Part shown: piece after piece, positions 24,751-63,949 of the stretch
How positions within the stretch are numbered: position 1 is the first letter of the stretch
How the letters are laid out: each line of letters begins with the position of its first letter
Assembly: GCA_963827235.1 (NCBI GenBank)
Contig: CAWHAE010000010.1
Coordinates: forward strand, 352,001-416,000
DNA: 64,000 nucleotides
Direction of reading: 5' to 3'
DNA from: an uncultured bacterium
GTDB taxonomy: Bacteria > Chloroflexota > UBA5177 > JANWHV01
Program-made: the position numbers and the translations under genes
The notes under the pieces: generated by a model
What the model saw: the letters and a program-made list of their open reading frames with translations, nothing else
Database searches by the model: none
Told to the model about the DNA's origin: nothing

Positions 24751-24755
24751 CCTGC

Positions 24756-25403: not shown

Positions 25404-25407
25404 CTGA

Positions 25408-25713: not shown

Positions 25714-25769
25714 TGCCGTCGTGTGGTTCCTCCAGTGGCGCGCGTCCGTGGAGGGGCGCGTACTAGCAA

Positions 25770-26186: not shown

Positions 26187-26231
26187 GGCTTACGCTCCTC
26201 AATCATGCCCGACCACCCTTCAGATTCCGAG

Positions 26232-27245
26232 CTATCGTATCGGACCATGCTCCCAGGACAGGGCGGAGGTTCGCACCGGCGCATCCCACAGGCGGATGAG
26301 CTCGTCGTCGAGCTTCAGCAAGGTGAAGGAGCAACCGGCCATGTCCAGCGAGGTGATGTAGTTGCCCACCAGGCAACGCACGATCGAGATCTCACGCTCT
26401 TCCAGGAGCTGGTCGAGCAGGCCGAACATCAGGTACAGCTCGATCAACGGGGTACCGCCCATGCCGTTCACGAGAGCCAACACCCGATCGCCGGTCCGGA
26501 AAGGCAGATCTTCCAGAATCGGCACGGCTAGAAGTCCGGTGATCTCTCTCGCGCTCTTGAGCGACTCGCGACGGCGGCCCGGCTCTCCGTGGATGCCGAT
26601 GCCCACCTCCATCTCGTCGTCGGCCAGCGCGAAGGTAGGTTTGCCGGCTGCAGGTACCGTGCAGCTGGTCAGGGCCATGCCCATGCTCCGACCCTGAGCG
26701 ACGACTTTTCGCGCCACGACGGCGACCTCATCGAGGGCGGCGCCTTCCGCGGCGCGGGCACCGGCGATCTTTTCCACAAGCACTGTCACGCCGACACCGC
26801 GACGACCCGCGGTGTAAAGGCTATCTTTGACTGCCACGTCGTCGTTGGTGATCACGGTCTCCACGGGGATGTCCTCGGCGGCGGCGAGCTCCGCGGCCAT
26901 CTCGAAGTTCATCACGTCGCCGGAGTAGTTCTTGACGATGTGCAGGACGCCCGCGCCGGCGTTCACGGCCCGGCTCGCGGCGAGCACCTGATCCGGCACC
27001 GGTGAGGTGAAGATAGCGCCGGCACAGGCAGCGTCGAGCATGCCGGGCCCAACGAAGCCACCGTGGAGGGGCTCGTGGCCGCTGCCGCCGCCGGAGATAA
27101 TGCCCACCTTGCCTGAGACAGGAGCGTCGCGGCGGACAACCAGGTGGTTCTGGAAGTCGATGCGCAGGAGCTCGGGATGGGCCGCCGCCATCCCCTGCAG
27201 CGCCTCGTCTACCACAGCGCCGGCAGCGTTGATCAGCTTCTTCAT
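26232..27245 (-). CDS. dhaK: Dihydroxyacetone kinase substrate-binding subunit
   Basis: [35 protein letters not shown]. Confidence 0.97.
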
Positions 27246-27491
27246 CGTAGGGGTCTCCTCATGGTGCACATCTACTGTACCGCTCCGCCGCCGTCGCTCG
27301 CCATCCCGGGCAGGACGCTTCGAGCAGGTGCGATCGTAGCGTGCGACCGGGGCCCATGGCGGCACGCCGGCACCGAGGTGTCGGTATCATTCCTCCTGAG
27401 TTGCCCGGCGTGTCTCCCATCGTCGAAAGCCGCCGGACCGGCGCGGCACTGAGCCCGGTTCCACGGCATCGGCGATAGAGGATGCTAGCTG

Positions 27492-48836: not shown

Positions 48837-48996
48837 CTACGACGAATGGGAGTCTGGAAGGGAGGTGCGGCGAAGGGAGCTGTTGATTGCGTGCAGCAAC
48901 TGCCGTGTGTGCGAGCGCTGCGGCTCGCACGTGTACTGCACGGGTGTTCATCGCACACGGATTCGGGACTCTTTTTCGAGACATAGGAGAGAGCAC

Positions 48997-50064
48997 ATGT
49001 CGAAGACGCTTCGAATTGCCATCTCGCTGACGGCAGCGGCCGGGTTGCTCGCCTCGTCCCTCGGTGTCACGGCCTCGGTGTCTGCTCACCAGGCGAAAGC
49101 GAGCAAGGGAACGATTGCCTTCTTGCGCTCTGGACCCGATCTGTACTATCAGGACGGACTGGCGGGCGCCGAGGCGGCTGCCACGCGGTTGGGCTACAAG
49201 GTCGTCGACTTTCCCAACCCGACCGTAAGCCCTGCTCAAGAGAAGACGAATATCCAGAATGCCATCGCGGACGGCGTGGTCGGCATAGATGGTTACTCGG
49301 TAGGTCTGGCGACCGAGACGGCCTCTATCGATGCCGCGGCGAGCGCGCATATCCCCATCTTCTTGATGTACGGATACAGCCACGCCTACATCGCCAACAA
49401 AGATGTGGTCGGATTCGAGCAGGTCAATCTCGAGAAGTACAGCTTCCCGGTCGGTCAGTACGTGAAGTCACACGTCAAGGGCGGCCAGCTCGCGATTATT
49501 ACGGGCCAGCTCGGACGTGGCGATGCCGAGGGGTACCGCACCGGTTTCTTGCAGGGTCTGGGTTGTGGCAACGATACGTCCGGTGCGTACGTGAAGTGCG
49601 GCAATATTGACTACGTCGATCAGGAAAGCGGTGGTTGGCTCCGCCCGACCGCGTACGCCAAAGCGCAGGACATCATCGCGAAATACCCCAATCTCGCGGC
49701 GATGTTTGTTGAGAACGAGGACATGGCTGTTGGTGCTCACAGCGCGCTCGTTGCCGCCCATAAGGACAAGCAAGTGATGCTCGTCTCCCAGAACGGCGCG
49801 CCCTACGGCCTCGCGGGCATCGCGGCCGGCTGGCTCCAGGCGTCTGACACCTGTTCGCCGTTCCTGGAGGGCATGGTATCCATCCGCTTGATCGATGCTT
49901 TCATCGGCAAGAAGGTCACGGGTGGTCACTTGTACTACTCGTACACCGTGTTTGTCACCAAAGCAAACCTGAATCAGGCAGTAGGTTGGAATCCGGCCAG
50001 CTCGGCGATCGACCAGCTGATGAAGCTTCCGTTGCCGAAGCCCGTAACACCGGCGCCCATGTAG
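48997..50064 (+). CDS. Sugar ABC transporter substrate-binding protein (RbsB-like)
   Basis: Signal peptide; ENEDMAVGA motif; position in the operon. Confidence 0.85.
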   Translation: MSKTLRIAISLTAAAGLLASSLGVTASVSAHQAKASKGTIAFLRSGPDLYYQDGLAGAEAAATRLGYKVVDFPNPTVSPAQEKTNIQNAIADGVVGIDGYSVGLATETASIDAAASAHIPIFLMYGYSHAYIANKDVVGFEQVNLEKYSFPVGQYVKSHVKGGQLAIITGQLGRGDAEGYRTGFLQGLGCGNDTSGAYVKCGNIDYVDQESGGWLRPTAYAKAQDIIAKYPNLAAMFVENEDMAVGAHSALVAAHKDKQVMLVSQNGAPYGLAGIAAGWLQASDTCSPFLEGMVSIRLIDAFIGKKVTGGHLYYSYTVFVTKANLNQAVGWNPASSAIDQLMKLPLPKPVTPAPM

Positions 50065-50483
50065 ACGCTTGCGAGCGCAGTCGTGGGTCTCACAACGTTT
50101 GACGCCCGGCTGCCAGTCCGCGTGAGTGTCGACAAGCACGGAGCAGCCTCGGCAGAAACAGAGGAGTCTGTTCTCTGTTTCTGCCGAGGAATCAGCGGGG
50201 CAGGGCAGTAACTCCTGTCGCGCCGGACCAGCCGCCTTGGCGTCGCCTACCACCCGACAAGCGCTGTCGGCACGCGTCCCGGGTTCCCCGCGGACCGGCC
50301 TCAACGCGATCGGGGGACTCTGCAGATGACGTTGCGGCGTGCGCCTTCCGGCCATGAACGTTCTCGGAAGCCCGTGACGGCCGGACGGGCGTGAGGCCGT
50401 CACGGCGAGAGGTGCTGCACACAGCGGAAAGTGGTCCCTTGCTCCAGAGCGTCGGCAAGCACGAAGGAGGAGATGGTTCATCC

Positions 50484-51341
50484 ATGAAAATCGGAATTGA
50501 TAGCTATTGTTTCCATCGGTTCTTCGGCGAGGTCTATCCCGAACAGCCGGCGCCGACTCGGTCCATGTCTATGGACGACTTTCTGGCATTCGCGCACGAC
50601 CTGAAGGTGGACGGCGTGTCACTTGAGTCCTGCTTCTTCCCGACGCACGAGGCCTCCTGGATGCGCGCCCTGAAGGCAAAGCTGGACGACTATGGCTTTG
50701 ACCGGGTTTACGCCTGGGGTCATCCCGATGGTCTGGAGGCAGGCAAGAATCGTCATGCGCTGGACGACATGGTGGCCCAGATCCCGAACGCCGCCATGAT
50801 CGGCGCACCGGTCATGCGCGTAGTGGGCAGCAGCCTCATGTTTCGGCACGAGCCTCACCGGCCGCAGCTCGAGATCCTGGCAGGCTGGTTCCGCGAAGCG
50901 GTGCCGGTCGCCGAGCGACACGGCGTGAAGCTGGCAGTAGAGAACCATATCGACTACACCGCCGATGAGATACTCTGGCTTGTGGAGGCTGTGAACTCGC
51001 CATACTTCGGTGTGAACTTCGATACCGGCAACTTCCTGCGGCTGCTTGATGATCCGATAGTGGGCATGGAGAAGTTGGCGAAGCACACGTTGGCGACCCA
51101 TATCAAAGATCTCAAAATCCGAAAGGGCACTTCGCCGAGCGAATGGTTCTTCTTCTCAAGCACGCCGGTCGGAGATGGCCTGGTCGACAACCAGAAGCTC
51201 GCGCAGATCCTCAACCAGGCAGGCTACCACGGCTTTCTGGCAGTGGAGATCGACCATCTGCACCCGGACTACGAGTACGATGAGCACGCGGCGGTGCGCA
51301 AGAGCGTGCAGGAGCTGCGTCGCATCGCGAGCAGCGTGTAG
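50484..51341 (+). CDS. Sugar phosphate isomerase/epimerase (xylose isomerase-like TIM barrel)
   Basis: AVENH, NFDTGN, THIKD, LAVE metal ligands. Confidence 0.9.
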   Translation: MKIGIDSYCFHRFFGEVYPEQPAPTRSMSMDDFLAFAHDLKVDGVSLESCFFPTHEASWMRALKAKLDDYGFDRVYAWGHPDGLEAGKNRHALDDMVAQIPNAAMIGAPVMRVVGSSLMFRHEPHRPQLEILAGWFREAVPVAERHGVKLAVENHIDYTADEILWLVEAVNSPYFGVNFDTGNFLRLLDDPIVGMEKLAKHTLATHIKDLKIRKGTSPSEWFFFSSTPVGDGLVDNQKLAQILNQAGYHGFLAVEIDHLHPDYEYDEHAAVRKSVQELRRIASSV

Positions 51342-51356
51342 GAGTGAGGATGGGTA

Positions 51357-52526
51357 GTGGCGATGACTGACAAGACAGTCAATGTGGCCCTCATCGGCAC
51401 CAAATTCATGGGAAAGGCGCACAGCAACGCCTGGTCTGGTGCATCCCATTTCTTCGAGCTTCAACGGCAGCCGGTTCTCAAGGTGGCGTGCGGACGTAAT
51501 CGCGAGGATCTTGTGCACTTCGCGCGGACCTGGGGGTGGGAGGAGATAGAGACCGACTGGCGCAAGGTAGTCGAGCGACCCGACGTCGACGTGGTGGACA
51601 TCGCGGTACCGCAGAATCTGCATCGAGATATCGCGGTGGCCGCCGCGAAGGCGGGAAAACATGTCTTCTGCGAGAAGCCGATGGCTCTATCTCTTGCCGA
51701 GGCACAGCAGATGCTTGAAGCCGCCCAGGTGGCCGGCGTGGTGCATTACCTCAATCACAACTACCGGCGTGCTCCCGCAGTGATGCTGGCCAAGCGCCTG
51801 ATCGACGAGGGCAAGATTGGACGTGTGTTCCACTGGCGCGGTGCGTATCTGCAGTCCTGGATTATCGATCCATCGTTCCCCTTGACATGGCATCTGCGGC
51901 AGGAAACGGCCGGGTCTGGGCCGAATGGTGATCTCAATTCGCACAGCATCGACCTTGCCCGCTACCTCGTGGGCGAGATCAGCGATGTAACGGCGATGAC
52001 CGCGCAATTCGTGAGCGAGAGGCCGCTGCCGGGCAACGGCGCGGCCACGTTCACCGCCGGTAGCGCGACCGAAGGTCAGACCGGCCGAGTCACGGTGGAG
52101 GATGCTGCGTTCGCAGTGGCGAGGTTCGCCAACGGTGCACTCGGTACGTTCGAGGCATCGCGCTTCGCCCTTGGGCGCAAGAACTTCAACAGTTTCGAGA
52201 TTTACGGGGACAAAGGTAGTATTCTGTTTGACCTGGAGCGCATGAACGAGCTGCAGTACTTCTCGGCCTCGGACCCCGAGTATGCGCAGGGCTTCAGACG
52301 CGTGATTGTCACCGAGCCGGTCCATCCGTATGTCTCGCACTGGTGGCCACCCGGACACATTATCGGCTACGAGCACACGTTCTTCCACGCCGTGGTCGAC
52401 TTCGTCCAGGCAATCGCCACAGGAGGAGAAATCGCGCCGAACTTCAGAGACGGTGTCGCGGAGACAGCCGTGCTCGAGGCGGTGCTACGGTCGGCGGCGA
52501 CCGGCCAGCGCGTTTCCGTGATGTAG
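51357..52526 (+). CDS. Gfo/Idh/MocA oxidoreductase resembling levoglucosan/glycoside 3-dehydrogenases
   Basis: IG..FMGKAHS, CEKP, NYRRAPAV, YLQ.W..DP..PL.W, FEASR, HPY...W. Confidence 0.85.
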   Translation: MAMTDKTVNVALIGTKFMGKAHSNAWSGASHFFELQRQPVLKVACGRNREDLVHFARTWGWEEIETDWRKVVERPDVDVVDIAVPQNLHRDIAVAAAKAGKHVFCEKPMALSLAEAQQMLEAAQVAGVVHYLNHNYRRAPAVMLAKRLIDEGKIGRVFHWRGAYLQSWIIDPSFPLTWHLRQETAGSGPNGDLNSHSIDLARYLVGEISDVTAMTAQFVSERPLPGNGAATFTAGSATEGQTGRVTVEDAAFAVARFANGALGTFEASRFALGRKNFNSFEIYGDKGSILFDLERMNELQYFSASDPEYAQGFRRVIVTEPVHPYVSHWWPPGHIIGYEHTFFHAVVDFVQAIATGGEIAPNFRDGVAETAVLEAVLRSAATGQRVSVM

Positions 52527-52611
52527 GTCCGCGCGCACCTGCTGTAGTGCATGCCGGACCGGCAACAGCCAGGCGTCGACGAGCCGGCCGGTCCGCAAAG
52601 CATGCGTATGG

Positions 52612-52647
52612 AGTTGACGGGGGCGACGCCCGTCGCCCCCGTCAACT
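52612..52647. terminator. Perfect 17-bp inverted repeat between convergent genes (candidate bidirectional terminator)
   Basis: AGTTGACGGGGGCGACG-cc-CGTCGCCCCCGTCAACT. Confidence 0.7.
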
Positions 52648-52709
52648 GCGCTGTTCGCCTGCGGGACTGCACTCCTGGCTCGGCTCCGGCGACAGCGAAC
52701 AGGCTCAGG

Positions 52710-53546
52710 TCACCGGTTGCCGAGCACGTGCTTGAGATGAGCCACTGACCTGCCAGCCTGTTCCACCGTTCCGCATTCGACCGAAAGCACGCCGGTGTAA
52801 TTAGCGTCGTCTAGTACGTCCACGACCTTGGCCCAGTCGACGGCACCGTCACCGCATGCGCAGCCCACCGGCGTGCCGGTCACACGACCGCGCTTCTCCT
52901 CGGCCATCTCGAAAGCAATGTCCTTCGCGTGCACGTGGACCACTCGGTCCACGACCTGCTTGAGATCGCGAATCGGATCGGAGCCGGCGAGGTAGCTATT
53001 CCCGGTGTCGAAGTTGATACGAATCCATGGTGACGGCACGAGCTCGACAATGCGGAGCAGGCCTTCGACCGTGGTCGAATACACTCCGTGGGGTTCGATG
53101 CCGACCAGGATGCCATAGCGTTCCGCCGTTTGCGCGACCACGGTGAGCGAGTAGCGCATTATCTCCCACGCCTGGTCTTCCTGCATCCAGGCTGGCTTGA
53201 TGCCCTCGTCCGTGTTGACCACCGGAGCTCCGAGATCCGACGCGTAGCGAATGGCCTGTCGCAAATACGGCACGCCCGCGTCAGGCCGCATTAGCGGCGC
53301 GTGCGCCGAAATGCCGGAAGGCTTGAGACCGGCCGCGGCCAGCTGGTCTCTGACCTCAATCGGGTCTTCCTCCATGGTGCGGAAGTGGTAGTAACCGGCT
53401 TCGATAAGCAGATCTCGTCCCGTCATGACGCAGGGTTCGAGATACTCGTAGCCAAGCTCGGCGGCCTTCGAGACAGCGTATTCGAAGGGTTTGTCCTCGT
53501 GTCGCACGAACTCCGCATTAATGCCTATGCCGATGTGACCAGCCAT
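52710..53546 (-). CDS. Sugar phosphate isomerase/epimerase (TIM barrel)
   Basis: GIEPH, NFDTGN, HVHAKD, LSVE. Confidence 0.9.
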   Translation of the reverse strand: MAGHIGIGINAEFVRHEDKPFEYAVSKAAELGYEYLEPCVMTGRDLLIEAGYYHFRTMEEDPIEVRDQLAAAGLKPSGISAHAPLMRPDAGVPYLRQAIRYASDLGAPVVNTDEGIKPAWMQEDQAWEIMRYSLTVVAQTAERYGILVGIEPHGVYSTTVEGLLRIVELVPSPWIRINFDTGNSYLAGSDPIRDLKQVVDRVVHVHAKDIAFEMAEEKRGRVTGTPVGCACGDGAVDWAKVVDVLDDANYTGVLSVECGTVEQAGRSVAHLKHVLGNR

Positions 53547-53777
53547 CACGCCAACCTTTCGAGACGAAAAAGCAGAGCTGCCGAATTCAACCCTGCTCAC
53601 GGTTGCTGCGATTACCAGGCTTGACTGTGTCGAGCATACACGATCCGCGTGAGCAGTCGTGCGATTCGACGCACCCACCGCCTGGGATGCACGGTTCCGG
53701 GCGCGCCTGCCACCAAGCGACAGTCACTCTCTGTGACAGGCCACGATCCGTGGTAGACGCAACGCCGAACCGTCCCA

Positions 53778-54335: not shown

Positions 54336-55337
54336 CTAGACGGCGTCCGGCCTTGCCGGCAGCCGGTCGTATCTGCCGAGCTCCTGGAAAGCGCGGATAC
54401 AATGCCGGTAGTTCTCGTCGGACATGCCGATCGAATGATATTCCTCGACGTAGCCGACGAATCCGCCGTTATAGCAGCCAAGATTGTCGACCAGCCTTCC
54501 CGCCTCGCGATAAATGTCTTCCCGGCGGCCGCTTATCGCCGTGGTTTGATAGCTGACGGGGCACATGAAGCAGACCCTGCCGCCAAAGTCCCTGCCCAGC
54601 TTCTCGACGTCGTAGAGGTTGGGCTGGCTGACGTTCAGCAGGTCGACGCCGATCTCGATGAAGTCTGGGATGATCTCGTAGTAATAGCCGCAGCAGTGGA
54701 AGTACACGTCGAGGCCCAAGCTGTGCGCCAGGTCGAACTGCCTCTTGTATCTTGGCTTGAAGAATCTTCGCCACAAAGTGGGCGAGACGATCAGGTTCAT
54801 CTGCGTGCCCCAGTCATCGAAGAAGGCCACCCCGTGGAAGCCGTGCTCCGGCAGTTGGCGAATCACGTCTTCCTCGAAGCCGAACACGAGGTCGGCGAGG
54901 CGCTCAGCCTGGTCGGGCTCCTCGTACAGGTCAACGAGAAGCTGCTCGAAGCCGCGCAGGAAGGTCATGATCGTGAACCCGGTCAGGACCAGGCTGGCGA
55001 CGTAATAGCGATCGCCGTATTCCTGCTGGATCGCGTCGACATGGGCAAATCGCGTGCGGTCGTGTCCGGAGGGCAGCGGCAGGTCCGGCAACTGCTCCCA
55101 GCTCGTCAGAATCGCCTTCCTGGGCTGGCCCATCGTCTCATCGCGTTGCTCCCAGGTGAAGCCCCATTCGGACCGCTTCTCTGTTTCACCCATGAAGTGG
55201 CGCACGACGTCGATCAGGATGATGTCGGACTGGTCCTTGTCGGCGTTGAAGAACAGAATGGGAACGCGGTCCGGGCCGGTCATGTGCACGGCCCGCCTCA
55301 CGCGGTCGAGCCTGTTCATTTGCGGGCTCTCCATCAT
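54336..55337 (-). CDS. Uroporphyrinogen decarboxylase (UroD/MtaA-fold) family protein
   Basis: PDRVP, LRGFE.LL.D, DDWGTQ..L.VSP..WR..FKP.Y, FHCCG, EIGVD, NGG. Confidence 0.87.
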   Translation of the reverse strand: MMESPQMNRLDRVRRAVHMTGPDRVPILFFNADKDQSDIILIDVVRHFMGETEKRSEWGFTWEQRDETMGQPRKAILTSWEQLPDLPLPSGHDRTRFAHVDAIQQEYGDRYYVASLVLTGFTIMTFLRGFEQLLVDLYEEPDQAERLADLVFGFEEDVIRQLPEHGFHGVAFFDDWGTQMNLIVSPTLWRRFFKPRYKRQFDLAHSLGLDVYFHCCGYYYEIIPDFIEIGVDLLNVSQPNLYDVEKLGRDFGGRVCFMCPVSYQTTAISGRREDIYREAGRLVDNLGCYNGGFVGYVEEYHSIGMSDENYRHCIRAFQELGRYDRLPARPDAV

Positions 55338-55499
55338 ATGCTCGCCGGGAAACCGTCCTCATTCCACTGGCGGTCTTGACGTGGCTTCATCATCGCACAG
55401 CCGGCCTGAGCAGGAAAAGCCTGCCGGCGGCCGGCGCCAGGCGCGGGCGTGCCCCTCCTGCGACCGTCACCGGACGGCGACGCCCGGCTGGAAGGCGCG

Positions 55500-57068
55500 T
55501 CATCGCTCCCGCGCTGCGATCACGGCGTTGTAGAGCCACTTCTGGCGGGCCAAGGCATCCACGTATATCTGATGCCGCTCTTCGGAAGGCAGCAGGGAGG
55601 GTTCTAGCGTGGTGGCCACGGAATCCAGCCGGTCGATCGCGCCGAGGGCCTCCAAGGCCAGTATCGCGCTGCCTCTACTCGTCGCTTCGTCGAGGCTCAA
55701 GCGAGCCACCGGACAACCGAGAGCGTCGGCGATCATCTGAATCCAGGCGGGTGAATGCGCGAGAGCGGCGCCGCTGGCCACGATCTGGACCTCGTCTGTG
55801 TTCGACGTGTCCGTGCCATCAGCGGCCGCGGGCAGCTCGCCTCGCAGTATGCTCCAGACCTCGGCAAAGCGCAGGGCAACCGCCTCCATGCCCGCACGCA
55901 GGAGGTCGACAGGTCGGGTGTGGAGCGTGACACCGTCGAATACTGCGCTGGCACGTGATGCCCATCCGGTGCTGCGTTCCCCGGCCAGGAAAGGCAAAAT
56001 GGTCAGACCGTGGCTGTCAGGAGCCATAGCTGCCAGCTCAGCCTCGACAGCTTCCAGATCGGGAAGGTGCAGTGTGTCGCGCATCCAGGCGACCATGTTG
56101 CCGCCGGTACTGAGCACGCCGCCCATGGCAAGGCGACGGCGGTCAAGACGATACACCCATAGACCGTGCGGAATGGACACGCGATCGGACGGCCAGATCA
56201 CTCGCATGGCGCCGGATGTGCCGACCATCGCCACCACGCCCTCCGCCGTGCAGCAGCCGCTGCCGACATTGTTGGCAGGCCCGTCGGCCACGGCCGGGAA
56301 CCAGGGTATGGCGGAAAGGGGAGGCCAGCATTCGGCGTACGCGGGACGAAGCTTTCCCAGCGTCTCGGCCCGGTCGATCAGGGCGGGGAGCTGCGATTCG
56401 GTCAGGCCGACAGCCTGCAACATCTCCTGGTCCCAGCAACAACGGTGCTGGTCCAGCAAGCCCGAGCCCGAGGCTAACGAGATGGTGGTCGCGACCCGGC
56501 CGAACAGGTGGAAGTAGAGATAGTCGCCGAAGGACATCCAGGTGGCTGCTTGCCCGAACGTGGACGGATCGCCGCGTGCAACCCAGCGCAGCTTCGCCGG
56601 CGGGTAAGTGGCATGCAGCATGCAGCCCGTGCGCGCGTGTACGGCTTCCTCATCCAGCTCTGCCTTGAGCTCCGCCGCTCCGGCGGCCGCTCGAGTATCC
56701 GCCCACGTGTAGACCGGCGTGATGGCACGGCCATGGTCGTCGACTGCAAGCAGACTGTGCCAGAACGTGTCGACGGCCACGGCGCCGATGTGCCGGGCAT
56801 TCGTGCCGGCGCACCTCAGAAGCCTGTCGATGGCTACAAGTGCCAGGTCCACCATTGAATCCGCGTCGGCCTCTACGCCTCCGTCGGCCGTGGTGCGTAT
56901 GTGCTGCGGCACACAGACGGCCATCCCCTGGATGTCTCTGGCTCGAGCGTCGAACAGCATGGCACGTATCGAAGACGTGCCGACATCCACGGTCAGTACA
57001 AACGGCCGCCTGGCATCCTCGGCAGTAACGCTCTCGACGCGCCGGCTGCCAGAGGCATCCACGGTCAT
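55500..57068 (-). CDS. FGGY family carbohydrate kinase, gluconokinase-like
   Basis: DVGTSSIRA, WHSL, TWADTR, RTGC..H..Y, DGPANNVGSG, GTSGAMR, PFLAGERS.GW. Confidence 0.9.
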   Translation of the reverse strand: MTVDASGSRRVESVTAEDARRPFVLTVDVGTSSIRAMLFDARARDIQGMAVCVPQHIRTTADGGVEADADSMVDLALVAIDRLLRCAGTNARHIGAVAVDTFWHSLLAVDDHGRAITPVYTWADTRAAAGAAELKAELDEEAVHARTGCMLHATYPPAKLRWVARGDPSTFGQAATWMSFGDYLYFHLFGRVATTISLASGSGLLDQHRCCWDQEMLQAVGLTESQLPALIDRAETLGKLRPAYAECWPPLSAIPWFPAVADGPANNVGSGCCTAEGVVAMVGTSGAMRVIWPSDRVSIPHGLWVYRLDRRRLAMGGVLSTGGNMVAWMRDTLHLPDLEAVEAELAAMAPDSHGLTILPFLAGERSTGWASRASAVFDGVTLHTRPVDLLRAGMEAVALRFAEVWSILRGELPAAADGTDTSNTDEVQIVASGAALAHSPAWIQMIADALGCPVARLSLDEATSRGSAILALEALGAIDRLDSVATTLEPSLLPSEERHQIYVDALARQKWLYNAVIAARER

Positions 57069-58042
57069 TCGGCGAGCAGGTCGCGCAAGGCGGCGACGAC
57101 CTGGGGGCAGTCGGGCACGATGGAGCGCTCCAGGGGCGGGCTGTAGGGCACCACGGTGAAGGTGCCGTTGAGCCGGTGCACGGGCGCATCCAGGTCGTCA
57201 AAGCCGCGGGCCGTCACCTGGGCGGCAATCTCGGCCCCGATGCCGCAGGGGGCGTAGGTCTCGTCCACCACCAGCAGCCGGCCCGTCTTGTGCACCGAGG
57301 CCAGGATGCTCTCGATGTCCAGCGGGGCCAGGGTGCGCGGGTCCAGCACCTCCACCGAGACCGCTTCCCGGGCCAGCGCCTCGGCCGCCTGCACGGCCAG
57401 CGGCACCATCGAGCCCACCGCCACCACCGTGGCCTGGCTGCCCGGCCGCACCACCGCCGCCCGGCCGAAGGGGATCAGCTCCTCCTCCTCGGGCACCGGC
57501 CCCTTGCTGTTCAGCAGGGTGCGCGGCTCCATGAACACCACCGGGTCGTCGCAGCGAATGGCCGTCTTGAGCAGGCCCTTGGCGTCCCGGGGCGTGCTGG
57601 GCACCACCACGCGAAAGCCGGGCAGCTGGGTGAACAGGGGATAGTAGTTGCCGGTGTGATGGGCGCCCGAGGAGTCGCCGATGCCGATGCAGCCCCGCAG
57701 CACGATGGGCATGGTGAGCCGGCCGTCGCTCATGTACTGCACCTTGGCCGTCTGGTTGACCAGCTCCCCGATGCCGTCCAGGGCAAAGTCGAAGAACATG
57801 TAGTCCACCACCGGCCGGCTGCCCGTCATCGCCGCCCCCGTGCACAGCCCCGTGAAGCCCCGCTCGCTGATCGGCGTGTCGCGCAGCCGCTCGGCGCCAT
57901 AGAGCGCGAACAGGCCCAGCGTGGTGCCGAAGTTGCCGCCCCGGCTGCCGATCCCTTCGCCCACCACGAACACCGTGGCATCGCGCGCCATCTCCTCGGC
58001 CAGCCCTTCGCGCGCCGCCGCCGCATAGGTCATCTCTCGCAT
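57065..58042 (-). CDS. 2-oxoacid/acetoin dehydrogenase E1 beta subunit
   Basis: DTPISE.GF.G, NQTAK..YMS.G, DAKGLL, D.RTL.PLD, LDAPV.R. Confidence 0.93.
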   Translation of the reverse strand: MREMTYAAAAREGLAEEMARDATVFVVGEGIGSRGGNFGTTLGLFALYGAERLRDTPISERGFTGLCTGAAMTGSRPVVDYMFFDFALDGIGELVNQTAKVQYMSDGRLTMPIVLRGCIGIGDSSGAHHTGNYYPLFTQLPGFRVVVPSTPRDAKGLLKTAIRCDDPVVFMEPRTLLNSKGPVPEEEELIPFGRAAVVRPGSQATVVAVGSMVPLAVQAAEALAREAVSVEVLDPRTLAPLDIESILASVHKTGRLLVVDETYAPCGIGAEIAAQVTARGFDDLDAPVHRLNGTFTVVPYSPPLERSIVPDCPQVVAALRDLLAE

Positions 58043-58064
58043 GGCTCGCACCCCCACCGCCCTC

Positions 58065-59063
58065 TCAGGCCTCGCTATAGACGTGCCGGGTCGCCGTGCC
58101 GACCTCCGGCCAGGCACTCTGGGTGGCAAAGGTCACCGCCTCGGCCACCTCCGCCTGCACCGCCGCCTCCAGCGCCTCCAGCTCGTCTGCCGTCGCCTGC
58201 CCCTGCTCCAGCAGCCGCGTGCGCAGCCGCTGCACCGGACAGCGCGCCCGCCAGGACGCCACCTCGTCCCGCGTGCGATAGCCCGAGTCGCTCATCCCTT
58301 CCGAGTGCGGCCGCGTGCGGTAGGTCAGGCATTCCAGCAGGCTGGGCCCTTCCCCGGCCCGCGCCCGCGCCACCGCCTCCCCCGCCGCCTGGTAGACCGC
58401 CACCACGTCGTTGCCGTCCAGCCGCAGCCCCGGCAGCCCGTAGCCGCCGGCCCGCTCGGCCACCACCGGGTTGCCCGACACGCTGGCGAAGGGCACCTCG
58501 GTGGCATACAGGTTGTTCTCGCACACGTACACCACCGGCAGCTTCCAGGCCGCCGCCATGTTCAGCCCTTCGTGGAAGGCGCCGTTGTTGGCCGCCCCGT
58601 CGCCGAAGAAGGCCACGCTCACCAGGTCCGTCTTGCGCAGTTGGAAGGAGTAGGCCGCCCCGGTGGCCATCAGGATGCTCGGCCCCACGATGCCGCTGGT
58701 GCCCAGCACCCCCACCTCGGGCGCGAACAGGTGCATGCTGCCCCCGCGCCCGTGCGAGACCCCGGTCACCTTGCCGAACAGCTCCGCCACCAGGGCCCGC
58801 GGCGCCACCCCTTTGGCCAGGGCATGCCCGTGCCCCCGGTGCGTGCTCAAGATCACGTCATCCGGCCGCAGGTGGGCACACACCCCGCTGGCCACCGCCT
58901 CTTCCCCGATGTAGGTGTGGCAGGCCCCCGGGATCAGCCCCGCCTGGTGCGAGCGCGCCAACTGCTCCTCGCAGCGGCGGATCAGCACCATCTGCCGGTA
59001 CAGGGCCAGCAGCCGGTCCTTGTCCACCACCGCCGCCGCCTGCCCCGCCATCTGTGTCACCAT
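58065..59063 (-). CDS. TPP-dependent dehydrogenase E1 alpha subunit (AcoA/PdhA-like)
   Basis: H..IGEEA, STHRGHGH, GRGGSMH, FGDGAANNGAFHEGLN (TPP motif), ENNLY, TYR...H. Confidence 0.94.
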   Translation of the reverse strand: MVTQMAGQAAAVVDKDRLLALYRQMVLIRRCEEQLARSHQAGLIPGACHTYIGEEAVASGVCAHLRPDDVILSTHRGHGHALAKGVAPRALVAELFGKVTGVSHGRGGSMHLFAPEVGVLGTSGIVGPSILMATGAAYSFQLRKTDLVSVAFFGDGAANNGAFHEGLNMAAAWKLPVVYVCENNLYATEVPFASVSGNPVVAERAGGYGLPGLRLDGNDVVAVYQAAGEAVARARAGEGPSLLECLTYRTRPHSEGMSDSGYRTRDEVASWRARCPVQRLRTRLLEQGQATADELEALEAAVQAEVAEAVTFATQSAWPEVGTATRHVYSEA

Positions 59064-59095
59064 ACGGCTCGTTCCTTTCCCGTGCCGCGCCGGCC

Positions 59096-60436
59096 CTAGC
59101 GCACCAGCCAGAGCGTCGGCCGCTCGATGAACTCCTTCACCCGCCGCAGAAAGCGGGCCGCCGGCGCGCCATCGACCAGCCGATGGTCAAACGTCAGGCT
59201 CAGGGCCAGCATCTTGCGCGCCGCCAGGGTGCCGCGCTCCTCGTCCACCACCACCGCCCGGGCCACGATGCGCCCCACACCCAGAATGGCACACTCGGGC
59301 AGGTTGATGATCGGCGTGAAGGCGTCCACCTCGTACATGCCCAGGTTGCTGATCGTGAACGTGCCCCCGTGCAGGTCCTGGGCCGTCAGGCGCCCGCTGC
59401 GCGCCGCCGCGATCAGCGCCGCCGACTGCGCGGCGATGCGGCGCACCGACAGGGCGCCCACGTCCCGCAGCACCGGGGCCAGCAGGCCGCGCTCCGTGTC
59501 CACCGCCAGCCCGATGTTGACCGTGCCGTGCTGCACGATCGTCTCCCCCTCCAGCGAGGCGTTCAGCGCCGGATACTCGCCCAGGGCCAGGGCCACCAGC
59601 CGTGCCAGCAGGTCGTTGTAGGACACCGCTCCCTCCCCCGCCGCCGCCCCCTCCGCGTTGATCGCCTGCCGCAGCGCCACCAGGGCCGTCGCCTCCGCCT
59701 CCGTGGTCAGGGTCACCGGCGCCACCGTGTGCGCGCTGGCGCTCAGCCGCTCGGCAATCAGCCGCCGCACCCCGCCGACCCGCGCGCTCGCTGCCTCGGC
59801 GACCGGCGCCGCCCCCTCGGCCGCCTGCGCCACGTCGGCCCGGGTCAGCCGCCGCCCGCCCGTGCTGGCCGCCAGCGCCGCCACGTCCACCCCGGCCTCG
59901 CGCGCCAGCCGCCTCGCCAGCGGCGTCACCCGTGCCGCCGCCGGCTGCTCCGCCGCCGCCCGCACGTCGCGCTCCACGATGCGGCCCGACTGCCCGCTGC
60001 CCTGCAACGGCCGCCAGTCCACCCCCAGCTCCCGCGCCACCCGCCGGGCCCGCGGACTGGCCGCTGCCGCCTCGCGCGTCTGGGCCGGCAGCCTCGTGTC
60101 CCCGCTCGGGCCGGCGACCGGTGCCTGGGCGCTCTCGGCCGCTGCCGGCCGGTCGACCGCCTCGGGCTGGCTGGGGCCGGGCAGGGCCTCGCCGGGAGCG
60201 AGCAGGTAGCCCAGCACGGTGCCCACCGGCACCACCATGCCCACCGGCGGGCAGCCGGGCGCGATGCGCAGGATGCCGCGGTCGATGGACTCCACTTCGG
60301 TGACCACCTTGTCCCCTTCGACCAGGCAGACCACGTCGCCGACCTCGACCTGCTCGCCGTCCTGCTTGCTCCACTCCACCAGGCTGGCTTCATTGCCGCC
60401 CCAGCCGAGCCGGGGCATCACGATGTCTACCGCCAT
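59096..60436 (-). CDS. Dihydrolipoamide acyltransferase E2 (one lipoyl domain, two PSBD-like repeats)
   Basis: EGDKV lipoyl Lys; SPRARR and TPLARR subunit-binding motifs; GGTFTISNLG; FDHRLVDGA. Confidence 0.94.
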   Translation of the reverse strand: MAVDIVMPRLGWGGNEASLVEWSKQDGEQVEVGDVVCLVEGDKVVTEVESIDRGILRIAPGCPPVGMVVPVGTVLGYLLAPGEALPGPSQPEAVDRPAAAESAQAPVAGPSGDTRLPAQTREAAAASPRARRVARELGVDWRPLQGSGQSGRIVERDVRAAAEQPAAARVTPLARRLAREAGVDVAALAASTGGRRLTRADVAQAAEGAAPVAEAASARVGGVRRLIAERLSASAHTVAPVTLTTEAEATALVALRQAINAEGAAAGEGAVSYNDLLARLVALALGEYPALNASLEGETIVQHGTVNIGLAVDTERGLLAPVLRDVGALSVRRIAAQSAALIAAARSGRLTAQDLHGGTFTISNLGMYEVDAFTPIINLPECAILGVGRIVARAVVVDEERGTLAARKMLALSLTFDHRLVDGAPAARFLRRVKEFIERPTLWLVR

Positions 60437-60496
60437 CTCGCCACCCTCGTCGTCCTGCCCCTCGCCCCACCGCGCCTGCACGCCCCGGCAACATCA

Positions 60497-60511
60497 GTCA
60501 ACAGTATACAC
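60497..60511. promoter_or_regulatory. Candidate GntR operator upstream of E2
   Basis: GTCAACAGTATACAC (reverse complement GTGTATACTGTTGAC) matches the sites at 61661 and 63905. Confidence 0.7.
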
Positions 60512-60743
60512 AGCGCTACCGCCCGGTGCAATGCCACCCCCTGCTGCCCGGCGCCGCACCCACGCGCTCGCTCGCCACGGCACGCGCGGTGACCGTGGTC
60601 GCAGGAGGCGGCCATGACCACGGGCGCACCGCTCCCGCCGGGCGAGCACGGCTGTTCTCCCCGGCGAACCGCTCCGCCATCCCGGCCGGCCCGCCCGCTA
60701 CCCGAACGAGGTACCGAGGGCCGGCGGGCCGCTCGCCGCGCGG

Positions 60744-61517
60744 CTAGCCGGGCAGGTGCATGCTCACCGTCAGCCCGCCGTCCGCGAACAGCACGGCGCC
60801 CGTCACGTACGAGGCGCGCTCCGAGGCCAGAAAGACCGCGACATCGGCCATCTCGTTCGGCATGCCCACCCGCCCGAGCGGTATGTACCCCTCCAAGTTG
60901 AGGGGATAGGGTTCGAGCGCCGCGGCTCCGCGCCGCACGTCGATCGATCCGGGTGCGAGCGCATTGACGCGTATGCCCAACGGCGATAGCTCATCTGCCA
61001 GCGATCGCGTCATCATATTGATCGCCGCTTTGCTGGAGGCATAGTGGACATGCCCGTGGCGGGCGAGGACACTGTGCACGGACGAGATGAGCACGATGCT
61101 TCCCCGGCGCTTCGTGTCCCGCATGTGTGCGGCGGCGCGCCGAGCGCAAAAGAACATGCTCTTGAGATTGATGTCCTGCGTGCGATCCCAGTCTTCTTCG
61201 GTGAGATCAAACAGGGGACGCGGGTCGGTCAACCCCGCATTGTAGACGAGCACGTCGATAGCCCCGAGCGTGGCGACCGTCTCGTCGACCACCGCCTCCA
61301 CGTCGGCAACTCGACGCCCGTCCGCCGCGCACAGCAGGCAGCGACGCCCAGCGGCGCGCACCTCGGCGGCAACCTTCTCAGCACCCTCTTTGCTGGACTG
61401 ATAACTGATGGCCAGATCGGCGCCGGCGTCGCTGAATCCGCGTGCGATCGCGGCTCCGATGCCCGTTCCGGCCCCAATGACGGTCACTACCTTGCCCGTA
61501 AAGTCGATCGTATACAC
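60744..61517 (-). CDS. SDR family oxidoreductase
   Basis: GAGTGIG, YNAG, SS, YASSK, IRVNALAPG, PLGRVG, YVTG...ADGG. Confidence 0.94.
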   Translation of the reverse strand: MYTIDFTGKVVTVIGAGTGIGAAIARGFSDAGADLAISYQSSKEGAEKVAAEVRAAGRRCLLCAADGRRVADVEAVVDETVATLGAIDVLVYNAGLTDPRPLFDLTEEDWDRTQDINLKSMFFCARRAAAHMRDTKRRGSIVLISSVHSVLARHGHVHYASSKAAINMMTRSLADELSPLGIRVNALAPGSIDVRRGAAALEPYPLNLEGYIPLGRVGMPNEMADVAVFLASERASYVTGAVLFADGGLTVSMHLPG

Positions 61518-61660
61518 GGTCGCTCCCTGTCACTTCACCATGCTGCCCATCGCATTGCACGCGCCTGGGCTGTTCGAGTCCGTTCTCGCGCGATCTCGGC
61601 AGGAAAGCGAGCATGGCGAGCCTGCGCGCCGGTGCGCCTGCCGGCTTGATCCTGTACTGG

Positions 61661-61680
61661 GTCGATTGTATACTGTCGAC
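61661..61680. promoter_or_regulatory. Palindromic candidate GntR operator between divergent SDR and DHDPS-family genes
   Basis: GTCGA-TT-GTATAC-TG-TCGAC. Confidence 0.75.
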
Positions 61681-61750
61681 CGGAGTTGATCCAGCGCCGA
61701 TGCTGCGATGCGCGGCCGGACGCCGGCGCGCAATCGAGGGGAGAATGGTG

Positions 61751-62725
61751 ATGAGCGACCAATCCGCCACGAGCCGTACCGTACCAATGCGCCGGCGATT
61801 GACACGCGACAATCTTCACGGCGTGTGGGCCGCGGTGGCGACGCCGTTTGACATGGACGGTCGTTTTGACGAGGCGATCTTGAGGGAGAACGTGCGGCGC
61901 CTCTACGCGGCGGGCGTGCACGGGATCTACACCACCGACAGCGATGGCGAGTTCTACGCGCTCGAGCTCGACGAGTTCAAGCAAGTGGTCTCCGCTTTTG
62001 CCGACGAGACGCAGCGCCTCGGCGTCCCGGCTCAGGTGGGTGTGACCTGGTGCAACACGCAGGGCATGGTCGATAGGCTGCACTTTGCCGCCGACCACGG
62101 CATCCTGGGCGCCCACGTGGGGCATCCGTTCTTCATGCCCATGACGCCGGAGTCGTACAGGGAGTTCTGGCGTGACATGCAGCGAGCCGTGCCCGAGTGG
62201 TTCGCGCTGGTGCACTACAACACGCCGCGAGTGCACAACTACCAGTATGGACCTGACTATGCTCTGCTCGCACAGGATCTGCCCAATCTGATTGGCAGCA
62301 AGCACGTGGGCTCCAGCGTGCCAGAGTTCCTAACCTTGATGGCCAGCGCGCCGGAGCTGAGCCATTTCACCGGCGAGCATGCCATGGCGGCTTTCATGAT
62401 GCTGGGCGCTCGCGGCGTTTACTCGTGGTTTGTTAACTTCAACGCCGCCTACATGGTGTCGTGGTATGACGACATCGTGAACCGGCGATGGGAAGAGGCT
62501 ATCGCCAAACAGCATCGCATGCACGCCTTCATCACGGCGACGAGCATTCTGCAAGGGAACGGCAACCTGCACGGCATCGTCGGCAAGGCCGTGACAGCCG
62601 CATCGAAGTTTCTGGTGCCGGCGAACCGCACCCGAAAGCCGTACTTACCGATTCCCGATACCACGATTCGTGAGTTCCAGCGCCTCACCGAGGAGCAATT
62701 CCCCGATCTCTGCTGGCGGGGCTGA
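61751..62725 (+). CDS. DHDPS/N-acetylneuraminate lyase family protein (atypical)
   Basis: GVWAAVATPF..DG..D; GIYTTDSDGEF in place of GTTGE; HYNTP Tyr; IGSK Schiff-base Lys. Confidence 0.85.
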   Translation: MSDQSATSRTVPMRRRLTRDNLHGVWAAVATPFDMDGRFDEAILRENVRRLYAAGVHGIYTTDSDGEFYALELDEFKQVVSAFADETQRLGVPAQVGVTWCNTQGMVDRLHFAADHGILGAHVGHPFFMPMTPESYREFWRDMQRAVPEWFALVHYNTPRVHNYQYGPDYALLAQDLPNLIGSKHVGSSVPEFLTLMASAPELSHFTGEHAMAAFMMLGARGVYSWFVNFNAAYMVSWYDDIVNRRWEEAIAKQHRMHAFITATSILQGNGNLHGIVGKAVTAASKFLVPANRTRKPYLPIPDTTIREFQRLTEEQFPDLCWRG

Positions 62726-62773
62726 CCGCCGCTCGATGCCGGGTCGCCGCGCCCGCGAGTGCCGGGTGACGTG

Positions 62774-63541
62774 CTACTCCGGCGCCATGCCGACGGCGAG
62801 CGCGGCGCCACCGGCCTGCCGAGCCGTGCCGCGCGGACCGGCGTTTCTCTTGCGCTTGGGCGGGGCCGCCGTCTTGCTCGCCATGGCGCCGATGGTGATG
62901 CCCTGCCCACCGGTGAGATGGTCGTAGAGCAGCGCCTTGGCCGTCGCCGGCTCGTGCTGCTCGAGTGCAGCGACGATCGGGCGGTGCCCCGACACGGCCT
63001 TGGAGATGTCGTCTACCGTGGTGTCGGCTATGTCCAGTGTGGTCTCGATCAGCGTGGCCAGCGGCTCCCACGCGCTCCGCACGGCCCGGTTGCCCGAGAG
63101 CACGATCAGCGCGCGGTGGAAGGCCATGTCGGCGGTCGCAAACGCCTCCACTCGGCCCGCGGCCACCCCCTGCTCCATCTCGTCGATGTCGCGGTACAGG
63201 TCCGCTGCCTCTTCCTCCGTGATGCGCATGGCCGTGCGCTGAATGGCCAGCGTCTCCAGCGTCAGCCGGCACTCGTAGATGTCGGCGATGTCCTGTTGCG
63301 TCACGCCCACCACGTAGGCGCCGCGCCGCGGCTCGCTGCGCACCAGTCCTTCTCGCTCGAGCTGCGTGATCGCCTCGCGGATCGGTAGCCTGCTGACGCC
63401 GAAGCGCTTGGCCAGAGCCGGCTCTCTGAGGCGGTCGCCGGGAGCAAACTCCCCCAGCACGATGGCGCGGCGCAGGGTCGCGGCCACGCGTTCCCACAGT
63501 GCTTCAACCTGCACAATCTCCAGCTTATTGACACTCAGCAT
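62774..63541 (-). CDS. GntR family regulator with FCD domain (FadR subfamily)
   Basis: LRRAIV.G...PG.RL.E..LA..FGVSR.PIREA...L..EGLV; FHRAL; H..IV.A. Confidence 0.95.
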   Translation of the reverse strand: MLSVNKLEIVQVEALWERVAATLRRAIVLGEFAPGDRLREPALAKRFGVSRLPIREAITQLEREGLVRSEPRRGAYVVGVTQQDIADIYECRLTLETLAIQRTAMRITEEEAADLYRDIDEMEQGVAAGRVEAFATADMAFHRALIVLSGNRAVRSAWEPLATLIETTLDIADTTVDDISKAVSGHRPIVAALEQHEPATAKALLYDHLTGGQGITIGAMASKTAAPPKRKRNAGPRGTARQAGGAALAVGMAPE

Positions 63542-63904
63542 TCTTTGCCTCCCCCCGATTCACCTGCCCGTACGTTATCTCAGGCCGGCAGCGACGCGTA
63601 CCCACCTCCGTAGGGACCACCGGGCCAATCTCGACAATCGGGCACCGAGCTGAGCTGGTGGTCCGAGACTACCCCTAAGTGTACGAGACGGTCCAGGTTC
63701 TGTCCGCCGACACTACGTTTCCGGCCGGCTCGCACCGGGTTGGGCGACAAGACCGTGAGCCGCGGATTAGCCGCTTCCGAGTGTACCGTTCGAAGGCACT
63801 CTTCTGCCCAGCCGGCGCCCGACTCGCATCACGTCCTGCCTCCCGCATCATCCCCATGCCGCTATCGGGTGCGGCTCCCAGGCGACACGCAACTCCCACC
63901 ACGT

Positions 63905-63949
63905 GATGATTGTATACTATTGACAGTTGACGAACGGGCCTGCTACGCT
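63905..63949. promoter_or_regulatory. Candidate GntR operator overlapping a plus-strand promoter
   Basis: GATGATTGTATACTATTGAC (63905-63924) overlaps TTGACA(63920)-N18-TACGCT with extended TG. Confidence 0.6.

Follow-up and report, generated by a model that had tools for sequence, protein, structure and literature searches.

A probable accessory pyruvate dehydrogenase-type complex in a predicted GntR-controlled sugar-acid regulon of an uncultured Chloroflexota bacterium

In the window, by which we mean the whole 64,000-nucleotide stretch of DNA analysed here (G000:C10:352001-416000, G000 being the genome that holds it), a gene for a GntR-family regulator stands with genes for the E2, E1alpha and E1beta components of a thiamine pyrophosphate (TPP)-dependent 2-oxoacid dehydrogenase complex, an FGGY-family sugar kinase, a UroD-fold protein, a short-chain dehydrogenase (SDR) and a divergent aldolase-like protein of the dihydrodipicolinate synthase (DHDPS) family. 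The original prediction had described E2, E1alpha, E1beta, kinase and UroD-fold genes as a run on the minus strand accompanied by the other three, and the genes are as described. We assign a probability of roughly 0.55 to the reading that they encode an inducible accessory complex of the pyruvate dehydrogenase (PDH) type within a GntR-controlled sugar-acid regulon. The gene content, the conservation of operator-like sites, the paralogy to a canonical PDH and the recurrence of the same neighbours across phyla are direct observations.

Under this reading, an FCD-type GntR repressor would act via palindromic operators of GTnnAC hexamers, in two forms of 20 bp (GTCRAC-n-GTATAC-n-GTYGAC) and 13 bp (GTCAAC-T-GTTGAC). 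The regulon would comprise, in the window, E2-E1alpha-E1beta, the FGGY kinase read through from E1beta, the SDR, the divergent DHDPS-type aldolase, the regulator itself and UroD-like genes and, just past the window, genes for Ldh_2, a D-2-hydroxyacid dehydrogenase (2HADH), a second aldolase and an enolase-superfamily dehydratase. These genes would be co-transcribed within the locus and repressed by this particular GntR through the sites S1-S3 (Table 1). The module would belong to a sugar-acid pathway of the non-phosphorylative or semi-phosphorylative type, in which the complex, with an E3 shared from another locus, would turn a 2-oxo acid released by the pathway into an acyl-CoA.

The E1-E2 genes and the housekeeping pyruvate dehydrogenase

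Genes were identified from a listing of open reading frames (ORFs) together with Pfam and NCBIfam profile scans with curated cut-offs. On the PdhA equivalog model TIGR03182, the window E1alpha scored 356.9-357.2 bits, below the cut-off of 393.85, whereas another E1alpha of the same genome (C10:1014167), adjoined by its own E1beta and E2, passed with 439.4 bits. The window E1beta passed the cut-off of the PDH subfamily model NF006667 (337.2 vs 321). A survey of the phylum, whose 41 genomes include the unpublished G018, found an E1alpha over the TIGR03182 cut-off in 24. Of the single-match genomes checked, G024, G025, G036 and G037 carry the over-cut-off type and G022, G029 and G031 an E1alpha just under the cut-off, and the larger genomes of the phylum add several sub-cut-off paralogs.

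An E1alpha phylogeny, proposed in the original prediction as a check, was built with FastTree from 132 segments (midpoint root, Shimodaira-Hasegawa-like support), excluding high-scoring segment pairs that covered fewer than 250 query residues and the locus of G018. With clades defined by the TIGR03182 score only, the tree divides at support 99 into 24 rows, of which 23 are over the cut-off, and 108 rows that include the window protein. The window protein pairs with that of a congener, G001 (support 99), and both fall in a subclade of 86 rows (support 100), to which 80 of the 81 rows from other phyla belong. A scan for a further E1 in five more genomes that have the window-type E1alpha found AceE over its cut-off in two and a canonical PdhA in one. 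Profile score and tree position set E2-E1alpha-E1beta apart from the housekeeping PDH, and the original claim to this effect stands, with the canonical locus found elsewhere in the genome.

By their labels, the nearest protein relatives belong to Chloroflexota. Near relatives of the E1alpha, as named by the NCBI Prokaryotic Genome Annotation Pipeline (PGAP), mostly have the generic name "thiamine pyrophosphate-dependent dehydrogenase E1 component", with one pyruvate dehydrogenase. A plasmid tblastn search for labelled AcoA or PdhA returned matches of at most 51% identity with generic product names, and names in the Atlas were likewise generic.

The E2 contains one lipoyl domain, two E3-binding stretches and the catalytic domain (Biotin_lipoyl, E3_binding, 2-oxoacid_dh), and together E1alpha, E1beta and E2 hold the domain set of a 2-oxoacid dehydrogenase multienzyme complex. 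With the lipoyl lysine in GDKV, both E3-binding domains and the catalytic motif DHRLVDG (DHRxxDG type) in place, the complex looks intact from its sequence. The locus was originally noted to be without an E3, which is true of the locus, and no lipoamide dehydrogenase over the TIGR01350 cut-off was found on contig C10; E3 genes over that cut-off do lie elsewhere in the genome, at C8:159159 (541 bits) and C14:255111 (477 bits), and with its E3-binding domains kept, the complex would use an E3 in trans.

Some relatives of the window E1alpha carry an N-terminal lipoyl fusion (PF00364 + PF00676; P0006, P0008, P0010, P0055, P0111 and L032:5926-7452). These proteins are 445-506 aa long and 72-73% identical to the window E1alpha.

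Operator-like sites and the GntR regulator

The original prediction placed the motif GTCRAnnGTATACnnTYGAC at three sites. All three proved to be real and conserved in G001, although the pattern is exact at 61661 (S2) only, with 2 mismatches at 63905 (S3) and 4 mismatches, with a single arm intact, at 60497 (S1). At up to 2 mismatches the window holds 2 matches vs 0.01 expected. The core hexamer GTATAC occurs 9 times in the window vs 2.85 expected, and of its 604 copies in the 7.98-Mb genome, 4 are packed into 3.4 kb at this locus. A 40-kb stretch of G001 contains exactly 3 copies of GTATAC, one in each of the orthologous intergenic regions (UroD/gntR, DHDPS-like/SDR and SDR/E2), giving counterparts of S1 at 1154111, S2 at 1153086 and S3 at 1151117. 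S1 is also kept in a second copy of part of the locus on contig C9.

The motif scan that had been suggested was carried out on five genomes of the genus, G000 and G001 included. A half-site pattern of core plus arm, GTATACWRTYGAC, occurred 6, 5, 4, 1 and 2 times in these genomes, vs 0 occurrences in each for its reversed control. Its sites in the genus precede E2, SDR/DHDPS-like and gntR/UroD genes, and further sites stand before Ldh_2 in G001, before a 2HADH-SDR-E1alpha-E1beta-E2 cluster in G002, before enolase-superfamily dehydratases in G002, G003 and G004, and before one further operon in both G000 and G001. In addition, a 13-bp palindrome, GTCAACTGTTGAC, consists of the operator arms minus the central hexamer (a spacer-less variant) and has only 3 copies in the whole G000 genome. 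Two of them, at L011:11281-11293 and 12904-12916 (C10:425281 and 426904), serve as upstream sites of Ldh_2 and the enolase-type dehydratase, and the third, at C9:65912, precedes the Ldh_2 of the C9 copy. The sites resemble arrays of GTnnAC hexamers, an arrangement that would suit a FadR-subfamily GntR, and the gnt operator of Bacillus subtilis has a similar core. Taken with the conservation in G001 and the empty reversed control, the three intergenic sites have the character of conserved operators in a predicted GntR/FCD regulon, as originally proposed.

A further half-site had been reported over the SDR start codon (61503-61517). The GTATAC is present there as coding sequence (M-Y-T) and is not kept in G001; as it is coding and unconserved, it is probably a chance occurrence, and it was ruled out as an operator.

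The regulator has the FadR-subfamily architecture, with a GntR domain (PF00392, 72.5 bits) and an FCD domain (PF07729, 92.1 bits). It is 80% identical to its counterpart in G001 and 91% identical to its paralog in the C9 copy. In Escherichia coli, pdhR-aceEF-lpd encodes the GntR/FCD regulator PdhR beside a PDH complex, and PdhR acts at palindromic operators. The locus is similar in that a GntR/FCD gene adjoins a PDH-type complex, with operators that are here predicted. It differs in that the regulator scores 52.9 bits on the PdhR model NF007001 against a cut-off of 330, the E1 is of the heterotetrameric alpha/beta type and not AceE, the locus has no E3 gene, the predicted regulon also covers sugar-acid catabolic genes and the genome has a canonical PDH besides this complex.

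Recurrent neighbours and the candidate substrate

In order to place the complex in a wider context, 80 related loci were compared whose E1alpha is 58-73% identical to that of the window. They come from Planctomycetota, Verrucomicrobiota, Chloroflexota, Acidobacteriota, Latescibacterota, Rokubacteria and others, and since many Verrucomicrobiota loci are closely related to one another, the neighbour counts overstate independence. A homolog of the 2HADH encoded just past the window end (71048-72088), 51-61% identical to it, was found in 26 of the 80 loci, a FAH hydrolase in 22, an Mqo-like oxidoreductase in 17, an SMP-30 lactonase in 16, Ldh_2 in 7, an enolase-type dehydratase in 5, a KDPG aldolase in 4, a UroD-like gene in 3, GntR in 3-4 and FGGY in none. 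One operon reads 2HADH, lactonase, Mqo-like, SDR, FAH, MFS, E1alpha, E1beta, E2, SDR, IclR, and another, beside GH2, reads 2HADH, Ldh_2, PfkB, UroD, E1alpha, E1beta, E2, LipA. Further examples are GntR followed by E1alpha, E1beta, E2, 2HADH, Ldh_2, UroD, UroD; E1alpha, E1beta, E2 with 2HADH, UroD and KDPG aldolase further along; and a sugar ABC transporter, dehydratase, 2HADH, SDR, E1alpha, E1beta, E2. Within the genus, other arrangements join E1 with 2HADH, DHDPS aldolase, Ldh_2, UroD and GntR. These relatives beside sugar-acid and sometimes UroD-like genes in other phyla agree with the earlier proposal of a dedicated catabolic module.

Other elements of that proposal are local. The E2-first order, taken earlier as a sign that the run is not housekeeping PDH, is a local rearrangement seen in G000 and G001, with E2 upstream in 2 of the 80 related loci and the order E1alpha-E1beta-E2 in 59. 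The coupling to a sugar-acid kinase holds in G000 and G001, where the only ortholog of the kinase (74% identical) lies about 200 nt past E1beta; all other relatives of the kinase are at most 51% identical, and neither E1 nor E2 was found near FGGY relatives of 39-49% identity in 45 metagenome loci (0/45). The kinase link and, apart from the 2 loci mentioned, the E2-first order are thus confined to G000 and G001. The synteny search suggested for both partners accordingly bore out UroD beside E1 in a few loci and FGGY in none.

As read from protein families, the neighbour set matches non-phosphorylative or semi-phosphorylative routes for sugars and sugar acids, and such routes end in pyruvate together with lactate, lactaldehyde, glycolate or glyceraldehyde-3-phosphate (MetaCyc; PMC10444878). 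The gene set described here is like that of the non-phosphorylative pathways for L-fucose, L-rhamnose and pentoses (MetaCyc; Watanabe and co-workers) in having an SDR, lactonase, enolase-type dehydratase and aldolase or FAH, the last of which in those pathways yields pyruvate plus lactate, lactaldehyde or glycolate. It is unlike the characterised pathways in that no pathway enzyme of the locus that was scanned reaches an equivalog cut-off. SAR202 Chloroflexota are described as using non-phosphorylative sugar routes, and in the passages covered, GntR, UroD-like proteins and a dehydrogenase complex linked to these routes each have 0 occurrences (PMC10444878). Searches of PDB sequences with the 2HADH, Ldh_2, dehydratase and GntR proteins returned only structural-genomics or distant entries.

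We tentatively take pyruvate to be the most likely substrate of the complex, and otherwise a related 2-oxo acid. Pyruvate is the default because the nearest solved E1alpha chain is that of human PDH (210 bits vs 157-169 for the branched-chain type) and because recurrent neighbours, namely FAH hydrolase, KDPG aldolase and DHDPS-type aldolase, would release it. The keto sugar or 2-oxo sugar acid favoured in the original prediction gained no support, the recurrent neighbours making pyruvate the default.

Several observations weigh against an accessory, pyruvate-using complex under GntR control. The Caldilineaceae genomes G401 and G405 hold the window type and no E1 over either cut-off, and there a sub-cut-off E1 may serve as the main PDH. 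The G000 genome has four GntR paralogs, and the GTATAC core can be read as a -10-like TATACT, which the core of S2 overlaps in a promoter scan, so that part of the conservation could reflect a promoter and not an operator. A pyruvate-releasing enzyme was detected, with the queries used, in only 20 of 46 loci of at least 12 kb, many of these being related Verrucomicrobiota, and the models nearest in score to the conserved 2HADH are those of phosphoglycerate dehydrogenase and glyoxylate reductase rather than that of D-lactate dehydrogenase. Finally, a comparison of 85 window-type with 22 canonical E1alpha rows, requiring at least 85% conservation within both sets, revealed nine positions fixed differently, several of them in the TPP-motif and active-site loops. 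The window type has STHRGHGH where the canonical type has YR[ED]HG, GTSG for GGY, NNx[FY]ATEVPF for NNxYGMGT and DGND for DGMD. Other Chloroflexota E1alpha subclades show further variants of these loops with motifs of their own. On sequence grounds, this signature would fit a changed specificity as well as lineage drift.

The loop signature, together with the coexistence of the window-type complex with a canonical PDH, makes a 2-oxoacid dehydrogenase of new specificity a serious rival, even if we hold it to be doubtful. Its substrate would be a non-pyruvate acid supplied by the 2HADH/Ldh_2 pair, such as hydroxypyruvate, 2-oxobutyrate or a 2-keto- or 2-keto-3-deoxy-aldonic acid, and its product an unusual acyl-CoA. 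The cross-phylum signature includes an invariant Glu in NNx[FY]ATEVPF, the separate motifs of the other subclades and the model scores of the 2HADH point the same way, this 2HADH is retained beside E1 across phyla, and Ldh_2 supplies the opposite stereospecificity. Against these stand the proximity to human PDH among solved E1alpha chains, the E1beta over the PDH subfamily cut-off and the pyruvate-releasing neighbours, and no enzyme was recognised that would act downstream on an unusual acyl-CoA. It is equally doubtful that the STHRGHGH/GTSG/NNx[FY]ATEVPF/DGND clade, with its 2HADH, forms a further complex class in at least 5 phyla, which would carry out the oxidative decarboxylation of a non-pyruvate 2-oxo acid from sugar-acid catabolism, for instance hydroxypyruvate or a 2-keto(-3-deoxy)aldonate, with the H-x-C-G UroD-fold proteins as a so far unrecognised enzyme of that pathway.

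It is improbable that the complex resembles acetoin dehydrogenase and oxidatively cleaves an alpha-hydroxyketone or a keto sugar, phosphorylated or not, while the kinase acts on a substrate or a product. Of all options, this one has the least support. Among the 66 related loci with sufficient upstream sequence, 17 have an SDR no more than 500 nt upstream of E1alpha, which recalls the pairing of butanediol and acetoin dehydrogenases; scans of 10 of the 15 candidate SDRs upstream of E1 in relatives gave only generic models or sub-cut-off scores. The E1beta stop and the kinase start share 4 nt (ATGA), as noted originally, and two plasmids, S. meliloti pRM41A and one of Rubrobacter indicoceani, have uncharacterised E1alpha/beta sets within loci for polyols and sugars. 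There E1alpha/beta, with E2 or a small lipoyl protein, is surrounded by sugar ABC transporters, kinases, GlpD-like and Zn-dependent dehydrogenases, in which these loci are like the one described here; their E1 is 47-50% identical with other loop motifs, and pRM41A has its own lpdA and lipA. The counts of 0/80 and 0/45 for the FGGY association, and a kinase ortholog in G001 only, argue against such cleavage. The E2 is a full CoA-acyltransferase, as in 2-oxoacid complexes, and matches the AcoC-type model NF011457 over the lipoyl region only (67.2 bits vs 307). In general plan the complex does resemble AcoABC(L), an accessory and inducible E1alpha/beta plus E2, often adjacent to an SDR or alcohol dehydrogenase and sometimes sharing its E3, but window-type neighbours are sugar-acid genes and not butanediol or acetoin genes.

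That the block is a redundant PDH copy lying beside catabolic genes by chance, with a motif that is a shared promoter element only, is hardly credible. In favour of this view, the block is freshly duplicated within the genome, its GC content at third codon positions (GC3) of 0.90-0.95 stands out from its neighbours and the GTATAC core resembles a -10 box; against it, synteny with G001 at 63-84% protein identity spans block and flanks alike, the sites are palindromic, conserved and genus-specific, and the same neighbours recur across phyla.

To return to the accessory PDH-type complex, it shares domains and subunit types with canonical PdhA/PdhB/PdhC (TIGR03182 y type, alphaproteobacteria and mitochondria), and differs in its sub-cut-off E1alpha, separate clade, nine fixed differences and, in G000 and G001, E2-first order. 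A literature search turned up no publication on a complex of this kind with FGGY, UroD or sugar-acid genes next to it. The parts are all of known kinds; what is new is the delimited clade, its signature, the cross-phylum link to sugar-acid genes and the conserved operator-like sites. To our knowledge, 2-oxoacid dehydrogenase complexes have only a few substrate classes, namely pyruvate, 2-oxoglutarate, branched-chain, 2-oxoadipate and acetoin. The comparison delimits a well-separated, multi-phylum E1alpha clade that coexists with canonical PDH and travels with non-phosphorylative sugar-acid genes in bacteria abundant in soil and water (Chloroflexota, Planctomycetota, Verrucomicrobiota). Should pyruvate be the substrate, bacteria that degrade rare sugars would equip their catabolic regulons with an inducible PDH capacity of their own; otherwise, the complex would have a new specificity and supply a missing step in sugar-acid turnover. 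The conserved operator-like sites offer a handle for defining the regulon and searching for its inducer, and the UroD-fold proteins, a large family with 5952 cluster representatives, have no function assigned to them in this setting.

Gene layout, the second copy and the remaining proteins

The features of the locus and the segments that recur on contig C9 are listed in Table 1.

Table 1. Features of the locus, in window coordinates (extended past the window end for the last row)
Feature	Position	Strand	Basis or remark
UroD-fold protein, 333 aa (UroD333)	54336-55337	-	Pfam URO-D
FGGY-family sugar kinase, 522 aa	55500-57068	-	Pfam FGGY_N + FGGY_C
E1 beta subunit	57065-58042	-	Transket_pyr + Transketolase_C
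E1 alpha subunit, TPP-binding, accessory clade	58065-59063	-	E1_dh 282.5 bits
E2 acyltransferase	59096-60436	-	Pfam domains
Operator-like site S1	60497-60516	.	core plus one arm, ~70 nt upstream of E2 start
SDR, 257 aa	60744-61517	-	adh_short_C2 208.9 bits
GTATAC over SDR start codon	61503-61517	.	probably chance
Operator-like site S2, 20-bp palindrome between SDR and DHDPS-like gene	61661-61680	.	exact pattern match
Divergent DHDPS/NAL-family class I aldolase-like protein	61745-62725	+	Pfam DHDPS 81.4 bits
GntR-family regulator with FCD domain (FadR subfamily), presumed repressor	62774-63541	-	Pfam
Operator-like site S3, divergent region gntR/UroD-like gene	63905-63924	.	2-mismatch pattern match
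Segment duplicated at C9:57766-61516, E1beta to just inside SDR 3' end	57069-60822	.	blastn, 99.76% identical
Segment duplicated on C9, regulator	62851-63563		95% identical
Segment duplicated on C9, second aldolase, 2HADH, Ldh_2	70057-73295		99.7% identical

The E1beta probably starts at ATG 58042, although its longest ORF reaches 58129, and the E2 start at ATG 60436 agrees with the profile starts. The kinase and UroD333 genes are 162 nt apart, and no terminator-like site was detected in this gap. No RNA run was listed as containing the sequence, and among DNA runs only three contained 0.06-0.10 of its sampled words. Past S3, a second UroD-like gene starts beyond the window end, at about 64136; the region just past the window also holds Ldh_2, the 2HADH, a second aldolase and an enolase-superfamily dehydratase. 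G001 carries the matching run (Ldh_2 ... GntR, DHDPS-like, SDR, E2, E1alpha, E1beta, FGGY).

The PDH-type block has a GC content of 0.72-0.81 in an assembly of 65% G+C (21 contigs). Its E1/E2 genes (57065-60481), the regulator (62774-63541) and the second aldolase, 2HADH and Ldh_2 (L011:8082-11199) have a GC3 of 0.87-0.95, and the kinase, UroD-like, SDR and DHDPS-like genes one of 0.74-0.84, with 0.72-0.84 for the interleaved genes as a group. A recent import of the block as a foreign island, which these values might suggest, was rejected because G001 is syntenic with similar identity in block and flanks.

Three segments of the region recur in the same order on contig C9 by blastn, C9:57766-65926 being a compacted second copy of 57069-73295 in extended coordinates. 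This copy is without the SDR, DHDPS-like, kinase and UroD-like genes, and retains about 80 nt of the SDR 3' end. As this remnant is kept, the C9 copy was ruled out as the ancestral arrangement and derives from a window-type arrangement by deletion. Its divergence is uneven, with enzyme genes at 99.7% and the regulator gene at 95%, which may be due to gene conversion or to the presence of a second strain in the assembly; the C9 and C10 copies may come from two strains, as the assembly has an estimated contamination of 9%. Downstream of the copy (L009:6008-9872) lie genes for a DUF1638 protein, a protein without a family match and a melibiase-like glycosidase, and a UroD-like paralog lies about 5 kb past its other end.

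The kinase belongs to the FGGY family (FGGY_N 143 bits, FGGY_C 87.1 bits) and falls below the equivalog cut-offs of both XylB (226.1 vs 380.25) and GntK (212.4 vs 648.55). UroD333 belongs to the URO-D superfamily (52.2 bits vs 23.9) and falls well short of the MtaA/CmuA model TIGR01463 (44.8 bits vs 235.4); by score it is neither HemE nor MtaA and is a member of a large uncharacterised family. Its predicted model (predicted local distance difference test score 94.9) gave Foldseek TM values of 0.72-0.76 to UroD and to a methyltransferase of M. mazei at only 12-16% sequence identity, indicating a (beta/alpha)8 fold of the UroD/MtaA kind, and a sequence search against solved structures gave 0 matches at E<=0.01. 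Across 50 sequences of the family, H214 and G217 are invariant and C216 is at least 90% conserved (H-x-C-G), accompanied by a DDxGxQ motif; the count of family representatives given above was taken at E<=1e-3. No corrinoid-protein gene was found among the window proteins scanned, and no UroD333 ortholog occurs at the corresponding place in G001. UroD-like genes flank the regulon on both sides, with one more beyond, and stand beside E1 in three other phyla; the G000 genome has at least 10 UroD-like paralogs.

The SDR has as its best NCBIfam match the glucose 1-dehydrogenase subfamily, just under the cut-off (212.7 vs 215), and is 84% identical in G001. The DHDPS-like protein exceeds the Pfam DHDPS cut-off of 22.1 and stays below that of the DapA equivalog (65.2 vs 206). 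Its membership of the family is borne out by a Lys and a Tyr that align with those of the NahE hydratase-aldolase, and which we take to be the catalytic residues, the Lys forming the Schiff base. Orthologs outside the genus lie beside transporters of the peptide/amino-acid type, an aminotransferase and MFS transporters, and none is linked to E1 or E2, so this gene gives no clue to the substrate. The G001 ortholog (G001:C10:1152036-1153008, L104) appears as two overlapping pieces in different frames, from either a frameshift or an assembly error.

Elsewhere in the window, 48865-53678 encodes a ribose-type ABC binding protein, two xylose-isomerase-like TIM barrels and a GFO/IDH/MocA oxidoreductase that scores 405.8 bits on the levoglucosan dehydrogenase model vs 650, a layout that resembles clusters for anhydro-sugars or 3-keto-glycosides. 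A dihydroxyacetone-kinase set dependent on the phosphotransferase system (PTS) lies at 22972-27386, with Dak1, an EIIA-man-type protein and a PtsI-like phosphoenolpyruvate-utilising enzyme, and a second Dak1 with a TIM barrel, an SDR and a Zn-dependent dehydrogenase lies just past the window end (L011:3967-7967). Such Dak1 gene sets presumably recall tetritol/erythrulose routes.

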